The notes beneath the pieces were generated by a model that did not search any database, was not told where the DNA came from, and saw only the letters and a program-made list of their open reading frames with translations. Below are positions 5,256 to 40,424 of a DNA stretch of 46,829 bases, piece by piece; position 1 is the stretch's first letter; each line of letters begins with the position of its first letter. The stretch is from a virus. Taxonomy: Duplodnaviria > Caudoviricetes. The position numbers were made by a program, and so were the translations under genes. The stretch is from positions 1 through 46,829 of IMG/VR virus record IMGVR_UViG_3300012953_000050; one strand, written 5' to 3'.

Positions 5256-5921
5256 TTATTTTTCAAATATTTCATTATAAGGAAAAATATAATCAATTGC
5301 TTTAGCGCACTCTTTGGCTATTTCCATGTGCTCTTTCTGCGTTCCATTATCAGATCTCAATTCAATATAATGTATCCATGAACGAATTGTTCCGTTTACA
5401 TATAACTTACTTACAGTTAAACCTTCTGGTAAAACTGCTCTGGCCTGCTCTTTAGCGATTCCGGCCTCAATCGCCCATTCATATGCTTTCCTACAACGCT
5501 GAATAATTACTTCTTGATATGATTCCCATACGTAATTAATCGAATCTTCCATAGGAATATCAATGGAGTTCTGTCTGTTCTTATTATCTTGTAGTCTTGC
5601 TTCTCTTGTTGTAAATTCTAAATCTTCAATTGGATTAGCATATCTCTGACTGAATTCTTGAAAAGAAAAAGACCTATGTCTAAGTAACTGTCTTGCAATA
5701 TCTCTAGTAGTAGTAATCTCCATACAACATGAAGCCATTTCAAGTGGTGACCAATGTTTATGTTTAATTAGATACTTAACTAAGCCTTCTGCAGTTTCAG
5801 TATTTAGTTGATTTTCTGGGTTAGATACTCTAGCACAGAATGCAACCAACTGAAGTATATCGGGTGGGATATCCAAGTCTTCAGCTGGCTGCGAATATGA
5901 TATAAGTTTCACTTCCATCAT
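5256..5921 (-). CDS. thyX: FAD-dependent thymidylate synthase
   Basis: RHRSFSFQEFSQRY ThyX motif, HWSPLE. Confidence 0.97.
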   Translation of the reverse strand: MMEVKLISYSQPAEDLDIPPDILQLVAFCARVSNPENQLNTETAEGLVKYLIKHKHWSPLEMASCCMEITTTRDIARQLLRHRSFSFQEFSQRYANPIEDLEFTTREARLQDNKNRQNSIDIPMEDSINYVWESYQEVIIQRCRKAYEWAIEAGIAKEQARAVLPEGLTVSKLYVNGTIRSWIHYIELRSDNGTQKEHMEIAKECAKAIDYIFPYNEIFEK

Positions 5922-15863: not shown

Positions 15864-16310
15864 TTAAACAAAATCGTACTCAATTCCTGCTTCTTCAAAC
15901 AATTCAAGTGTAGTATATAATGATTGCTTCCATTTAATTGGAACTACACTTGGATCTGATATCTTCGGAGATACTACTCTGAGTATACCAGCTTGAATTA
16001 TTCCTTTAGCACATTCATTGCATACTGGTAATCCATAAACATACATAGTAGAACCTATTAAACTAGATCCTTGATATGCTGCGTTATAGATACAATTCAT
16101 TTCAGCATGTACTACATACTTATACTTTGATTCTTTATCAGCTAATCTAAATTCGTTATCTTCGATACCTCTAGGGAAACCATTATAGCCTTGAGCAATA
16201 ACTCCACCATAATCTGATACTGCTATAGCACCAACTTGAGTGCTAGGATCTTTTGACCATGTTGAAACTTCTTTTGCTAATCCTAAATATCTACTATCCC
16301 ACTTATCCAT
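15864..16310 (-). CDS. cd: dCMP deaminase
   Basis: SKDPSTQVG, GYNG, HAEMN, PVCNEC. Confidence 0.93.
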   Translation of the reverse strand: MDKWDSRYLGLAKEVSTWSKDPSTQVGAIAVSDYGGVIAQGYNGFPRGIEDNEFRLADKESKYKYVVHAEMNCIYNAAYQGSSLIGSTMYVYGLPVCNECAKGIIQAGILRVVSPKISDPSVVPIKWKQSLYTTLELFEEAGIEYDFV

Positions 16311-16994
16311 TTATTTCACCAAATCGAAATGTCTTTCATATACATGTAAATTTTGTACTTGCCAGAATATATCTCCGGCAGTTAATGTTCCATGATATAG
16401 TTCTTTGTTTATATCACTAGTTAAACAATTTAATACATATTCTTGCCAAGCAAAATCGTTACGATATCCGAATACTACATCATTAGATCTCATTTGAACA
16501 ACTGCATCGACTTGACTATTACGAATATAATAAGTTACTGCATTCGTGCAAATAAAATCTGATTTACCACCTTGATAATATTCAGTCCATATAGACGGTC
16601 TTTGATATATCATCGATGCTCTACGAGAATCTGGATTTTCACTTATTTCTTGAAGTACAGATTCATATTGATTATGATATTGTTCTGAATAAATAAGTTT
16701 ACCATAATTCGAATTGATATTACCATGAGGGTCAGCTGATCCAACCCAAGCTGCAGGTGGTTCTCTTTCTCCAGCATATATATCATTTATATTTGTCGAC
16801 TCAGATTCATACCAATCAATTTCTTTATCGATATAATCTGTATTAGGTTTACCAAATATTGCTGGTTTATCTGCTAAGAAATTAGCACCAATTATTTCAA
16901 TTGTTTTACAGCCAGTTTTATCTGTTGTAAACTCTTTATTTTCAAGAGCATTTACAAAGATTTCTGCAATATCTTTAGTCGTGTTCTGATACAT
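16311..16994 (-). CDS. gp42: dCMP hydroxymethyltransferase (T4 gp42-like)
   Basis: DKTGCKTIEIIGA, INSNYG, DFICTN, MRSNDVVFGYRNDFAWQ with Asp at the dCMP-specificity position; start moved to MYQN. Confidence 0.9.
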   Translation of the reverse strand: MYQNTTKDIAEIFVNALENKEFTTDKTGCKTIEIIGANFLADKPAIFGKPNTDYIDKEIDWYESESTNINDIYAGEREPPAAWVGSADPHGNINSNYGKLIYSEQYHNQYESVLQEISENPDSRRASMIYQRPSIWTEYYQGGKSDFICTNAVTYYIRNSQVDAVVQMRSNDVVFGYRNDFAWQEYVLNCLTSDINKELYHGTLTAGDIFWQVQNLHVYERHFDLVK

Positions 16995-17310
16995 CAATTT
17001 TCCTTTTGTTAAACATGTCACGATCAGGATCTTGTCCTTCCATCTTACCACGAATATATGATACTGCAAAACTTGCATAGTTAACCATATCTTTGTAGGT
17101 ATCTTCTAGCGATTCATAATTAGGTTCGTTACCTGATTCTATAATAGAAGTCGCACGCTGCATTTTACCGATCAATATATCATGAATAGTATCAATACCT
17201 CTGCGATAATGCATTGCTTGTAGAACAGTTGATTCCTGACTTTGATAGTCTTGAGATTTTTTAGTTTGCATTTCTGCACATTCTTGTAATACTTTTAAAC
17301 TTTCTTTCAT
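16975..17310 (-). CDS. Nucleotide-modification-associated domain protein (Nmad1/DUF1599-like)
   Basis: KKSQDY...K..R...ESLEDTYKDMVNYA pattern; adjacent to gp42. Confidence 0.7.
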   Translation of the reverse strand: MKESLKVLQECAEMQTKKSQDYQSQESTVLQAMHYRRGIDTIHDILIGKMQRATSIIESGNEPNYESLEDTYKDMVNYASFAVSYIRGKMEGQDPDRDMFNKRKIDVSEHD

Positions 17311-18949: not shown

Positions 18950-19025
18950 TGGTGGAGCTGGAGGGAATCGAACCCACGACCTTTCGGATGCAAACCGAAC
19001 GCTCTCCCAACTGAGCTACAGCCCC
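18950..19025 (-). tRNA. tRNA-Ala(UGC)
   Basis: 76-nt cloverleaf GGGGCTG...CAGCTCCACCA, G3:U70, anticodon TGC, GGTTCGATT T-arm, encoded CCA. Confidence 0.96.
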
Positions 19026-31511: not shown

Positions 31512-31586
31512 TGGTGTTCCCGACAGGAGTCGAACCTGTATCAGCGGTTTAGAAGACCGATATTCTATCCATTGAACTACGAGAAC
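31512..31586 (-). tRNA. tRNA-Arg(UCU)
   Basis: 75-nt cloverleaf GTTCTCG...CGGGAACACCA, anticodon loop CTTCTAA, GGTTCGACT T-arm. Confidence 0.93.
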
Positions 31587-34369: not shown

Positions 34370-34954
34370 CTAGCCCATAAAAAGCTCGAGTTTTTGAGCT
34401 TCTTTCTTTTCTTTTATTTTTTCTTGCTTAGCAAAGTCTTTAATAGCTTTATCTTTATCTTGTACTTTATTAATACGCTGACGTAAAGTATCTACATAGT
34501 TCATAGTTTGTTCAGCACCTTCAGCATCCATACCCATTTGTACGAAATCTTCAATGCCCATTTTTTCGATGAACTTAAACTTGATATCTTGTTGTTTCTT
34601 TTCTTTTGCAATTCTTCTGATAAAAGCAAAATAACATATTTGAGTAAAATATGAGAAAGCATTTGGTTTACCTGTTCTAGTAGCTGTTTCAATATTGTAA
34701 TTATTGATTGCTCTTAAACAGTTTTCGACTCCATCCATAACCATTTCTTCTCTATATGTATACCTTACAAAGTTTGGCCTATGACTTAGACCCTCTGCAA
34801 TCTTGATAAAACACGTAGCGATATAATCAGTTACTTTTGGTATTTGCGAGTTTTCTGCTCTAGCTTTATGTACGTTCGTTGCATAGTCCATAACAGCTTC
34901 AGAAAAATCTCTATTATTCACGTAATGTGGTTTCTTTTTAGCGGCACTTGCCAT
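34370..34954 (-). CDS. gp55: Late transcription sigma factor
   Basis: HYVNN, IAEGLSHRPNF, NAFSYFTQI, RRIAKEKKQ. Confidence 0.95.
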   Translation of the reverse strand: MASAAKKKPHYVNNRDFSEAVMDYATNVHKARAENSQIPKVTDYIATCFIKIAEGLSHRPNFVRYTYREEMVMDGVENCLRAINNYNIETATRTGKPNAFSYFTQICYFAFIRRIAKEKKQQDIKFKFIEKMGIEDFVQMGMDAEGAEQTMNYVDTLRQRINKVQDKDKAIKDFAKQEKIKEKKEAQKLELFMG

Positions 34955-37996: not shown

Positions 37997-38458
37997 TTAC
38001 TCAAACTCAAAATATGTGTATTTAAATGTAGCAGATGCTTCTAAATATTGTATTTCAGTTTCTTTTGCACTGAATTCTAAAGTATCTAAATTAGTTGGAA
38101 ATATATCTAAAAATTTAATTGTTTTACCCACATTATTATGTGATGTAAGGACAGATAATCTAGCATCTGATACAAACGGTTCGCCTGTATTAATGAGATT
38201 ATGCATCCAATCAAATAGTTCTATATAGTTTTCAAAGTTTTCAGTTACATTAAACTTAATAGTTAAGTCTTCAAAGTTGATTCGATCTCCAGTAAATGCT
38301 ACATTAGAACCTTTATATGGTAATGGAGCTTCAGCGAGCGATATACCTGGTACGTTAACACCAGTACAGAAATATTCTAAATTTCCATATTTCTCTCTGT
38401 CTATTAGAAAATTAAATCCTATAGGACTTACGTAGTTTTTATTAGTTGTAACTGCCAT
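37997..38458 (-). CDS. gp3: Tail tube terminator/completion protein
   Basis: VNVPGISL, GDRINFEDL, ENYIELFDW; synteny after gp23. Confidence 0.8.
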   Translation of the reverse strand: MAVTTNKNYVSPIGFNFLIDREKYGNLEYFCTGVNVPGISLAEAPLPYKGSNVAFTGDRINFEDLTIKFNVTENFENYIELFDWMHNLINTGEPFVSDARLSVLTSHNNVGKTIKFLDIFPTNLDTLEFSAKETEIQYLEASATFKYTYFEFE

Positions 38459-38462
38459 CTAT

Positions 38463-38594
38463 TTAACCTTGTTGTATTGTCTTATTCCAGACCTTGTTTA
38501 ATCTTCCACTTTTCATAATTTTATGAAATTCTTTTTCCTTCTTTTCTAGGTGTAATATCATAATATGAAAGTCATTCTTCATTTTTTCTATCAT
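38463..38594 (-). CDS. Hypothetical protein, 43 aa (MIEKMKNDFH...)
   Basis: Manually found ORF 5 nt after late promoter TATAAATA (38600-38607). Confidence 0.5.
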   Translation of the reverse strand: MIEKMKNDFHIMILHLEKKEKEFHKIMKSGRLNKVWNKTIQQG

Positions 38595-38629
38595 ATATCT
38601 ATTTATAAGGATAGAAATGTTAGTCTAGA

Positions 38630-38655
38630 ACAAAGGGACTCCGAAGAGTCCCCTT
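38630..38655 (-). terminator. Terminator hairpin with cUUCGg tetraloop
   Basis: GGGACTC-TTCG-GAGTCCC-TTTGTT. Confidence 0.8.
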
Positions 38656-38665
38656 GCCATCTATA

Positions 38666-38830
38666 TTAAGCTACCCACTTAACACCACGGTAAGTTCCGC
38701 TTTTTGGTGCTTTAGGTGACTTTTCTAGATCTTTAGATTTCCAAGAAATTCCTCTATAAACTCCTTCTTCCTGTTTAGAAGAAATTGTTTTAGCTACTTT
38801 CTCGGCCTTGATACCTCTATAGTAAGTCAT
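38666..38830 (-). CDS. DUF4278-like YRG-repeat peptide, 54 aa
   Basis: MTYYRGIK...GVYRGISW...GTYRGVKWVA; GGAGG SD; below ORF-track cutoff. Confidence 0.8.
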   Translation of the reverse strand: MTYYRGIKAEKVAKTISSKQEEGVYRGISWKSKDLEKSPKAPKSGTYRGVKWVA

Positions 38831-38892
38831 ATCAACCTCCAGTTTTCGTTTCGATTTCGTACATACGGAACTAAGCCGTACACCCTTCTCAA

Positions 38893-39009
38893 CGCGTTCC
38901 TTCGGTAACTTTCGGTCTCGTTCAGCATATCTGCCTACTTGCTATCCCTGCAATGCATTGCAGGAGGTTTTCAGGTTATCCTACTTCCGCCATATTTCTA
39001 TGGTGAACG
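38893..39009 (-). ncRNA. glnA-type glutamine riboswitch with expanded P3
   Basis: CGTTC-A-CCATA gaaa TATGG-CGGAAGTA-GG...CC-GAAG-GAACG-CG matches the glnA aptamer architecture. Confidence 0.75.
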
Positions 39010-39015
39010 TAATAT

Positions 39016-39023
39016 TATTTATA
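39016..39023 (-). promoter_or_regulatory. T4 late promoter TATAAATA
   Basis: Exact consensus 6 nt upstream of the riboswitch P1. Confidence 0.8.
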
Positions 39024-39040: not shown

Positions 39041-39069
39041 AAAAAAAAGGAGCTCCGGAGAGCCCCTTT
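39041..39069 (-). terminator. Rho-independent terminator of gp23
   Basis: GGGGCT/AGCTCC stem followed by T8. Confidence 0.85.
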
Positions 39070-39098: not shown

Positions 39099-40424
39099 TT
39101 ACACCATAATGTCGTCAACTCTGAAGATTCTGAAGTATGGGTTAGCACGGTTAGTACCAGTTCCATCTGCCGCAACAAATGGGTTAGCAACCATTCCATA
39201 TCTAGTTTTGAATCCGATTCTAGGTTGGAAGTCTTCCTCACCAACGGCTTTAACCATTTGTAAAGGAACGTATGGGCAGTAGAACATACCAGCGTCATAC
39301 GGGTTAGAACCTCTGTACCCTACACAAGCGTAATCGCCAGTTGCATAAGGATCAATGTATACTTTCATTCTTCCGTTAAGAACACCAGCAAAAGTATTAC
39401 CAGTATCGTCAACATTCAATGAAGTATTCATTGCTGGGCTGTAATCTAACATTCCAGCAGCAGCCAACGCTGAAGCAACGTCTGAAGAACAGATAACATA
39501 GTTACCTTTTCCACGTCTTGTTTCTTTAGCGATGATGTTAGCTTCTCTTTCGAGTTGCATAACTAAGCCTTTAAACTTCTCAGCACTCCATCTACCGTCA
39601 GAGTCAGTGTTAACATTGAAAACACCGCTTAGAGCAGTTGATGATTGAAGTGCACCGATTTTAGCTTTAGTTAGAATAGTTCTTACAACTTCTCTGTTGA
39701 TTTCCGCAAGGATTTCAGCAGATAGGATGTTAGCCAATTCTGACTCAGCGTCCAATCCGTGGATAGCTTTAAGGTCTTGTGCTAGTTCGATAGTGTACTC
39801 AGCTTTTAGAGCTCTTGACTTCGCAGTCACTGTAGATTTCTCGATTGAGAAAGCCATTTCTCCAAATGCTGCACCAGCACCACCTGACATACCTCTTTGT
39901 TCAGCTGTAGCTGTAGGTAAACCAGTACCGATACCAGAAACAGTATCAGATTCATCCGCGATGCTTCCGGAAGCTGGAGATTCTGAATCGACTACTCCAA
40001 CTAAACCTGAAGGATCAGCTTCGTGTGTACCTGTACCAGAGAAGTCAGTATCAGCTTCATTAAATAAAGCTTCAGTTCCACCCTGAGTTGAGTACTTAGA
40101 TTTCATTGCAAAGATAAGTCCTGTAGGACCATTCATTGGCTGTACGCCAGCGATATCATAAGCAATAAGGTTTGGCATTGCACGTCTTACTAAAGAGATT
40201 AAGACTGGGTCAAAGTTAGCAATATTAGAACCAGTAGCATTAGCGTGAGCCTCTGATACTTGTCCAAAACTTTCGTTGACTTTCTGTTCTCTTTGGGCAA
40301 TTTCTTGGTTTTCCAAGAGTCGTGCAGTTACCGCTTTACGATATTTGTCGCCAATAGATGGAGCATCTTCATGATCCAATACTGGTGACCATTTCTCGAT
40401 TAAATTTTGGTCTGCGTTAAACAT
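39099..40424 (-). CDS. gp23: Major capsid protein
   Basis: LIEKWSPVL, VQPMNGPTGLIFAM, AKSRALKAEYT, GFKTRYG. Confidence 0.98.
   Translation of the reverse strand: MFNADQNLIEKWSPVLDHEDAPSIGDKYRKAVTARLLENQEIAQREQKVNESFGQVSEAHANATGSNIANFDPVLISLVRRAMPNLIAYDIAGVQPMNGPTGLIFAMKSKYSTQGGTEALFNEADTDFSGTGTHEADPSGLVGVVDSESPASGSIADESDTVSGIGTGLPTATAEQRGMSGGAGAAFGEMAFSIEKSTVTAKSRALKAEYTIELAQDLKAIHGLDAESELANILSAEILAEINREVVRTILTKAKIGALQSSTALSGVFNVNTDSDGRWSAEKFKGLVMQLEREANIIAKETRRGKGNYVICSSDVASALAAAGMLDYSPAMNTSLNVDDTGNTFAGVLNGRMKVYIDPYATGDYACVGYRGSNPYDAGMFYCPYVPLQMVKAVGEEDFQPRIGFKTRYGMVANPFVAADGTGTNRANPYFRIFRVDDIMV

Follow-up and report, generated by a model that had tools for sequence, protein, structure and literature searches.

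The stretch of DNA analysed here, hereafter the window (46,829 nt; positions 1 to 46,829 of virus record IMGVR_UViG_3300012953_000050), is a T4-like genome. Behind its gp23 gene lies a short unit in which a glutamine-I riboswitch aptamer encloses 65 additional nucleotides within its P3 stem. What is this insert, and what does it contribute to the switch? The initial annotation had read the element as a structurally expanded glutamine switch, with a second ligand or protein site, by which a probably non-cyanobacterial phage would sense the nitrogen status of its host late in infection.

The outer aptamer and its unit

The unit lies 3′ of gp23 (39099-40424) on the minus strand, as do all its parts. 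After a terminator-like hairpin with a U run (39046-39069, found by a terminator scan) comes a T4-type late promoter, TATAAATA (39016-39023), 6 nt upstream of the first aptamer base. The aptamer is followed by a 3′ leader (38844-38893) that consists of a hairpin (38859-38883) and three CGAAA repeats (38844-38859), by a Shine-Dalgarno (SD) sequence, GGAGG (38836-38840), and by the gene for a 54-aa basic protein (38666-38830). A GC-rich hairpin with a short U run (38632-38653), recognized by its sequence and missed by the terminator scan, is the likely end of the unit. All the elements that the initial annotation had named (terminator, TATAAATA, P1, P2, CGGAAGUA, P3, 65-nt insert, hairpins, CGAAA repeats and SD) were found in place on this strand, and its view of a self-contained late unit is supported.

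The window has 17 copies of TATAAATA compared with 9.5 expected, a count of at least 17 being reached in 2 of 100 shuffles. Sixteen of the 17 are on the coding strand, and a late sigma factor gene is present at 34370-34954. Among homologues of the element, TATAAATA was found 5-9 nt upstream of the aptamer in 15 and 20-25 nt upstream in 15 others. Late RNA polymerase would thus likely start just ahead of C1. Contigs of relatives are also present in RNA libraries: a 997-nt contig spans 38836-38977 with 16 differences, and a 160-nt contig spans 38648-38807 with 2 differences. These contigs attest presence in RNA libraries and say nothing on transcription, its start or its strand. A second TATAAATA (38600-38607) was noted ahead of a charged ORF of 43 aa that matched no family (38463-38607, minus strand), with a tail-tube-like gene (37997-38458) downstream of it.

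The outer RNA is a member of the glutamine-I family by all the features that we examined. The Rfam model RF01739 matched 38891-39011 with 44.7 bits (cut-off 35; E 1.2e-6), the sole Rfam match above cut-off at this RNA, and left 72 nt of P3 unmodelled, so that the RNA is not covered end to end and is indeed an expanded variant. The entire expanded aptamer is 116 nt long (38894-39009) and scored 107 bits with our own covariance model, R1. P1 is formed by 39005-39009, with C1 at 39009, and 38895-38899; its 5′ strand was unchanged in 53 of 53 representatives, but this was set by the extraction pattern. P2 is a hairpin at 38990-39003, and the 5′ strand of P3 (38975-38981) pairs with 38904-38909, leaving one bulged A; both P2 and P3 covary. 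Between them, J2/3 (CGGAAGUA, 38982-38989) provides G22 (38988), G23 (38987) and one strand of the outer E-loop. The segment 38894-38909 carries the 3′ strand of P3, the GAA of the outer E-loop and the 3′ strand of P1, with C58 at 38896, G59 at 38895 and C60 at 38894. The three-way junction of P1, P2 and P3 is therefore present with an E-loop at the base of P3. Glutamine is described as contacting C1, G59, C58 and G22 next to a long-range pair G23-C60 (PMC6698751, PMC5393176), and all of these bases are in place (39009, 38895, 38896 and 38988; pair 38987-38894). When the sequence was folded singly, the result was ordinary (z -1.9; 9 of 200 shuffles equally good), and the case therefore rests on homologues.

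The aptamer is in the 5′ leader of a DUF4278 gene, whose ATG is 64 nt past C60. The encoded protein is lysine-rich, contains three YRG repeats and matched DUF4278 (PF14105) over residues 3-51 of 54 aa with 33.1 bits (cut-off 25.3). The three repeats were invariant in 46 aligned relatives, which had been chosen for three YRG. A protein word search matched the protein itself only, and its look-alikes in the Atlas were DUF4278 clusters (0.83-0.84), to be taken as leads only. This type of target is usual: in the published account of cyanobacterial glutamine switches, DUF4278 genes follow most of them, in 25 of 28 genomes (PMC6212724). Glutamine synthetase (GS) is the published guess for the target of DUF4278 proteins. 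The window protein resembles the GS inactivating factor IF17 in its DUF4278 match above cut-off, its small size, its basic nature and its place under a glutamine switch. It differs in consisting of the three YRG repeats alone, without the IF7-like GS-binding part; the DUF4278 part, N-terminal in IF17, has been reported as dispensable for GS inactivation (PMC6316151). Complex prediction for a dimer of SAR86 GS and the YRG protein native to SAR86 gave a score of 0.00, which is no answer and weighs neither way.

Among the nearest cultured relatives of the capsid protein were those of the pelagiphage HTVC008M (65%), Melnitz (62%) and Mosig (61%), compared with 57-61% for cyanophages. The capsid protein is thus closest to those of SAR11 and OM43 phages, in agreement with the suggestion that the phage is non-cyanobacterial. 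Host assignment drew on capsid similarity and on the cassette shared with SAR86 (see below), and the host may be SAR86 or a related gammaproteobacterium. A glutamine switch in such a phage is not new, as one had been implied to be: glutamine riboswitches have been described in phages, non-cyanobacterial ones included (PMC9004378, PMC9964418), among them Melnitz, a Methylophilales phage, and Mosig, a Pelagibacter phage, both marine and T4-like (PMC9004378). Those aptamers, however, are plain (49 and 54 nt) and located elsewhere; the interval that follows gp23 is empty in both phages. The gene annotated after gp23 starts no more than about 100 nt away in Melnitz, Mosig and C48C1, so the promoter-switch-gene unit of the window is an added cassette. 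A blastn search against cultured phages gave no match to this element.

Other features of the window include two different thymidylate-synthase-type genes and a dCMP deaminase gene (5256-5921, 15864-17078 (-)), with methyltransferase- and cytidyltransferase-like genes close by, a set that may point to nucleotide modification. There are two tRNA genes (18953-19025, 31515-31586 (-)), with the anticodons UGC and UCU by alignment.

The nested domain and its conservation

The nested domain (65 nt, 38910-38974) is enclosed by P3. Its 5′ side is an A-rich motif, GAAAACCUC (38964-38972), containing a CCUC complementary to the SD. A hairpin, Pa (38948-38963), is followed by the strand GG-N-W-AGC-(U)-AAGUA (38936-38947), by a second hairpin, Pb (38924-38935), and by the strand GAAC-(A)-GAGACCGA (38912-38923). 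A second AGUA/GAA E-loop (38936-38939/38921-38923) flanks Pb, which thus caps an inner E-loop arm; GAGACCGA forms the invariant 3′ motif.

Pattern scans of viral contigs, metagenomes and genomes provided at least 107 distinct full RNAs (49 viral, 42 from genomes, 15 from metagenomes, and the window). Several of these scans had fixed inner motifs; conservation was therefore counted separately in the four whose patterns were confined to the outer aptamer. Among the matches listed from these, there were 90 distinct inserts of at least 35 nt, and 51 were of the type found in the window, membership allowing 2 mismatches per motif. The other 39 comprised 25 of a different nested type, 4 tandem pairs and 10 unrelated, degenerate or chance matches. 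In all 51 listed copies of the window's type, GAAAACCUC, GG-N-W-AGC, AGUA and GAGACCGA were unchanged, while the same copies had 46 distinct Pa sequences and 37 distinct Pb sequences.

The pairing of both hairpins was kept. Over the 107 copies, the first three pairs were canonical in 318 of 321 cases for Pa (at most 239 in 1000 shuffles of the partners) and in 286 of 321 for Pb (at most 204). Covariation among homologues, proposed as a check on the structure, was clear in 53 representatives: 12 of the 17 modelled pairs changed on both sides, with a value of 0.556 compared with 0.174 after shuffling, a control that related sequences inflate, and at most 0.149 after sliding. The U after AGC and the A after GAAC, on opposite strands, occurred jointly in 16 of the 107 copies, were both lacking in 91 and never occurred alone. 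This reads as a single additional pair and sets the register for the arm with the second E-loop. For the core, nearest-neighbour energies favored a register with U-G/C-G extending Pa in 105 of 107 copies, CUC:GAG in 2, and CC:GG with GA:UC in none. RNAalifold offered an alternative in which CCG pairs with the outer CGG, and between such core registers invariant pairs cannot discriminate. The base following CCUC was a pyrimidine in 106 of 107, and the length of P3 from core to insert ranged from 3 to 9 nt per side.

In summary, about 29 invariant bases, unpaired or in non-canonical pairs, lie between freely changing stems. Such invariant bases are the signature of a binding pocket or of a tertiary core. 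Shared ancestry of the copies, which come from SAR86 and marine phages, inflates the invariance.

The initial annotation had also drawn attention to a perfect 18-nt palindrome (38947-38964). It is present, but it has no meaning of its own. Palindromes of at least 12 nt occurred in just 3 of 95 distinct inserts, and a 116-nt copy with 3 differences (L001) breaks the palindrome and retains its pairs as G-U. The palindrome is incidental, being hairpin Pa without a loop mismatch, and a role as a dimer or protein site was rejected because it is not conserved.

Searched alone against 4227 Rfam families, the insert had no match (best E 2.4-3.1). Several known aptamers were compared with it individually. 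In a second glutamine-I aptamer, the equivalents of C1-G59, G2-C58 and G23-C60 would be needed; these positions read otherwise in the insert, and RF01739 did not match it. Origin by duplication of the glutamine aptamer was not supported either, the likeness to the outer aptamer being no greater than in shuffles (220-1733 of 3000). For glutamine-II (RF01704) there was neither a model match nor a CGUUCA/CGCA core in the insert, although the other nested type, described below, did give a weak match. A glycine aptamer (RF00504) needs a CCGAAG strand that pairs with CUCUCAGG and leaves a U bulged out. AG follows CCGA in 0 of 107 inserts, where a hairpin replaces the single A, and in 39 of 39 parsed glycine aptamers, for which the parsing pattern had fixed it. 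The blocks GAGA, CCGA, GAA...CUC and GG of RF00504 are present in circularly permuted order, without a model match; 19, 66 and 416 of 3000 shuffles reached the block score (p 0.006, 0.022 and 0.14 before correction), and support for a remote homology falls away once the after-the-fact choice of the family is counted. The GGGGAGUAG and UCAACAUAC loops of the Mn2+ riboswitch (RF00080), of which three natural copies were compared, are not found in the insert.

This insert has long been deposited. Fifteen full rows and one shortened row of the 2010 glnA alignment (PMC2864571, supplement file 5) carry it, unaligned and left-justified in the insert columns, and the consensus drawing of the same work (file 6) has a plain P3. 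Full-text searches of the literature and passages of PMC9481103, PMC12452182, PMC5066625 and PMC7161355 gave no description of it, and within this scope the conserved nested domain seems to be undescribed.

Occurrence and natural variants

The inner pattern matched at least 53 genome stretches, 48 of them nested in a glutamine aptamer; the 5 others lacked the 5′ motif and the outer aptamer. Records with SAR86 in their title account for 43 of the 48; the remainder are three copies from unnamed gammaproteobacteria and one each from a Halieaceae bin and a "Flavobacteriales" bin. In the last (L533) the cassette follows a gp23 gene, and it is likely misbinned phage DNA. The SAR86 copies are among housekeeping genes, either next to the gene of an ammonium transporter or flanked by a secF-like and a suhB-like gene (names by reading of translations), and have the same 3′ leader and triple-YRG gene as the window. 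The same switch and gene are on SAR86 chromosomes; the expanded form is therefore host-type, and neither a phage adaptation nor a phage invention.

In one SAR86 family, the inner pattern was found in 41 of 50 genomes, 39 of them with the hairpin, compared with 7 genomes for a reversed control. Our own model detected 44 full-length copies in 151 genomes of the SAR86 order, 1 positive genome among 151 in a phylum-wide sample (the seed genome) and 2 among 151 in the family of the genome G003. The Rfam model RF01739 exceeded its cut-off in none of five insert-bearing genomes (four bacterial and one phage-bearing bin). No stand-alone or circularly permuted insert with both flanks was present among 103 viral pattern matches or the 53 genome matches. 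With a looser pattern for a stand-alone insert, a class sample of 401 genomes gave matches no more often than the reversed control. Forms lacking Pb were absent from 120 matches in viral contigs.

RF01739 in SAR86 has been mentioned before (PMC12379486). By a pattern for plain glutamine-I aptamers, these occur singly, in tandem or in triple in 105 of 266 genomes of the SAR86 order (L913-L942), where they precede glutamine synthetase, a glutamate-synthase-like gene (name by reading) and small basic proteins.

Natural variants of the locus are informative about the insert. At the site behind gp23, 16 loci (17 rows, one locus appearing twice) have the nested form, and three (L568, L577 and L615) have two plain aptamers in tandem. 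The tandem loci precede a related triple-YRG protein, that of L577 being the fifth closest to the window's (29/54), and L568 and L577 also share the next gene with the window. Tandem glutamine riboswitches are known from 157 doublets (PMC9481103) and, like the nested form, place two units before one expression platform, at the same phage locus. In the doublets, however, the units are side by side and of the same class, whereas the nested unit is without a glutamine pocket. In the SAR86 genome G031, the amtB-adjacent locus and the leader are the same and the protein is 65% identical, but P3 is plain. In L754 (301-422, minus strand) and L1136 (1501-1624, plus strand), the two hairpins and A-rich linkers are kept and the invariant motifs and E-loop are lost; the protein of this subtype has WRG at its end in place of the third YRG. 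One row of the 2010 glnA alignment is without arm Pb.

The second nested type is an unrelated 60-nt insert, also in P3, common in viral contigs, for example in L367 (775-885), and found in cyanophages, S-CREM1 (OP535465.1:164227-164330) among them. In S-CREM1 it corresponds to a 99-nt glnA element (PMC9964418, Table 4), which resembles ours in its long P3 insert and its YRG proteins and differs in the type of insert. This type has its own CGUUCA hairpin and an upstream GGAACG and resembles a rearranged glutamine aptamer, although the Rfam match is weak (E 0.02-0.035). It precedes glutamine-rich 2-YRG proteins. Since it occurs in the same arm, P3 is a place hosting a second aptamer-like unit. 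L655 (322-473) has a glutamine-I-like aptamer in which P2 is very long and P3 holds an insert of a third kind, 80 nt in length; no YRG gene was found behind it.

Possible roles of the nested domain

Our preferred reading, held tentatively and at somewhat less than even chances, is that of a glutamine-I switch with an intact pocket, transcribed late, that would turn on translation of the triple-YRG protein and would be tuned by a second small ligand bound to the nested domain. Glutamine would likely close P1 and the G23-C60 pair and thereby free the ribosome site. Such ON logic has been proposed for the cyanobacterial gifB switch (PMC6212724, section 20). The phage likely obtained the cassette from a host of the SAR86 type and would with it produce a nitrogen-status protein of the host type. 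Compared with the Synechocystis gifB leader and RF01739 (PMC6212724, PMC2864571), the window RNA is alike in the P1-P2-P3 junction, E-loop, pocket bases and DUF4278 gene; it differs from the RF01739 consensus in the 65-nt two-hairpin domain of P3, in a host type that would be SAR86 and not cyanobacterial, and in the late phage promoter. P3 rotates against P1 and P2 when the ligand binds (PMC6212724, with reference to Ren 2015), so that a domain at the end of P3 could couple to the pocket. We put a second ligand site first because of the approximately 29 invariant bases, because a tandem pair can stand in place of the nested form at one locus, and because a parallel aptamer-like unit occupies the same arm. 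Against it, the insert was never found outside a glutamine aptamer, so no gene context suggests a ligand, and it is dispensable, as seen in the plain P3 of G031, the lost motifs of L754 and L1136, and the row lacking Pb. E-loops and A-rich strands are also usual parts of scaffolds, which counts against a ligand too.

A bolder form of this reading is possible but doubtful. The insert might represent an undescribed aptamer class that exists only nested in the glutamine aptamer. A single RNA would then read two signals, glutamine and a second metabolite or ion, via one stem; the arrangement would be native to SAR86, and their phages would have hijacked it and placed it under a late promoter.

With no ligand of its own, the domain could instead be a scaffold, an explanation that we consider possible though improbable on balance: the A-rich strand and E-loop arm, either folded on themselves or docked onto P1/P2, would shape the pocket in advance and so determine its affinity or the rate of folding. 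Its parts (E-loop, purine-purine pairs and A run) are typical tertiary modules, it was never found alone, and it can be removed or replaced by a tandem pair. The "ghost aptamers" of glycine switches (PMC5066625) provide a precedent. However, the solved structure (PMC6698751) shows P3 pointing away from the core, the variation in P3 length (3-9 nt per side) is awkward for a fixed dock, and plain aptamers work without the insert.

We regard it as unlikely that the domain is a protein site, whether for the triple-YRG product, which would then control its own mRNA by feedback, or for a protein of the host. The proteins encoded behind the nested form do suggest a link, as 104 of 104 distinct ones have 2 or 3 YRG repeats, which are rare behind plain aptamers (5 of 45 proteins for single aptamers, 4 of 89 for tandem ones). 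The lysine-rich nature of the protein and a GAAAAC-like word that recurs upstream of the SD are consistent with binding. The same type of protein, however, is encoded without the insert in G031 and at 4 tandem loci, and 2-YRG proteins likewise follow the other nested type in 29 of 34 cases. The link between insert and protein may reflect shared descent.

Still less probable is a domain that serves mainly as an expression platform, in which CCUC would pair with the SD in the glutamine-free state and be hidden in the junction in the bound state. In the lowest-energy fold of the leader, 38963-38969 pair with the SD region (probability 0.65), and the near-constant pyrimidine after CCUC would fit such a role. 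In homologues, however, CCUC-SD pairing was predicted at >0.5 in only 13 of 92 long-leader copies and in 0 of 13 short-leader copies. The latter, which are the 13 of 105 homologues missing the 3′ leader, keep the motif despite an SD hairpin of their own. Pairing in a minority of copies does not account for the invariance of the motif, and GAAAA, the E-loop and GAGACCGA would be left unexplained. CCUC-SD pairing can be a side role under any of the other readings.

It is very improbable that the insert is a remnant of a duplicated aptamer or of a mobile element, tolerated without any role today. The loss in G031, the decayed motifs of L754 and L1136 and a topology like that of the outer aptamer would fit, but the motifs are exact in 51 of 51 copies while the stems undergo compensated changes, the insert is kept by 39 of the 50 genomes in one SAR86 family, and its resemblance to the outer aptamer does not exceed that of shuffled sequences.

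If the nested domain does bind a ligand, it would be a new riboswitch class in a new architecture, one aptamer inside the arm of another. The class would be present in marine phages and in a bacterial group that ranks among the most abundant of the ocean, and would have been overlooked since 2010 in the alignment of a known family. Natural controls are at hand in the clean deletion (G031), the tandem replacement at the phage locus, the motif-less subtype and the compensating U/A insertion. Even if the domain is a scaffold, current models under-annotate glutamine switches in SAR86. Glutamine switches have been viewed as restricted to cyanobacteria (PMC6316151). The plain-aptamer pattern, on the contrary, suggests that glutamine sensing by RNA is common in the SAR86 order.
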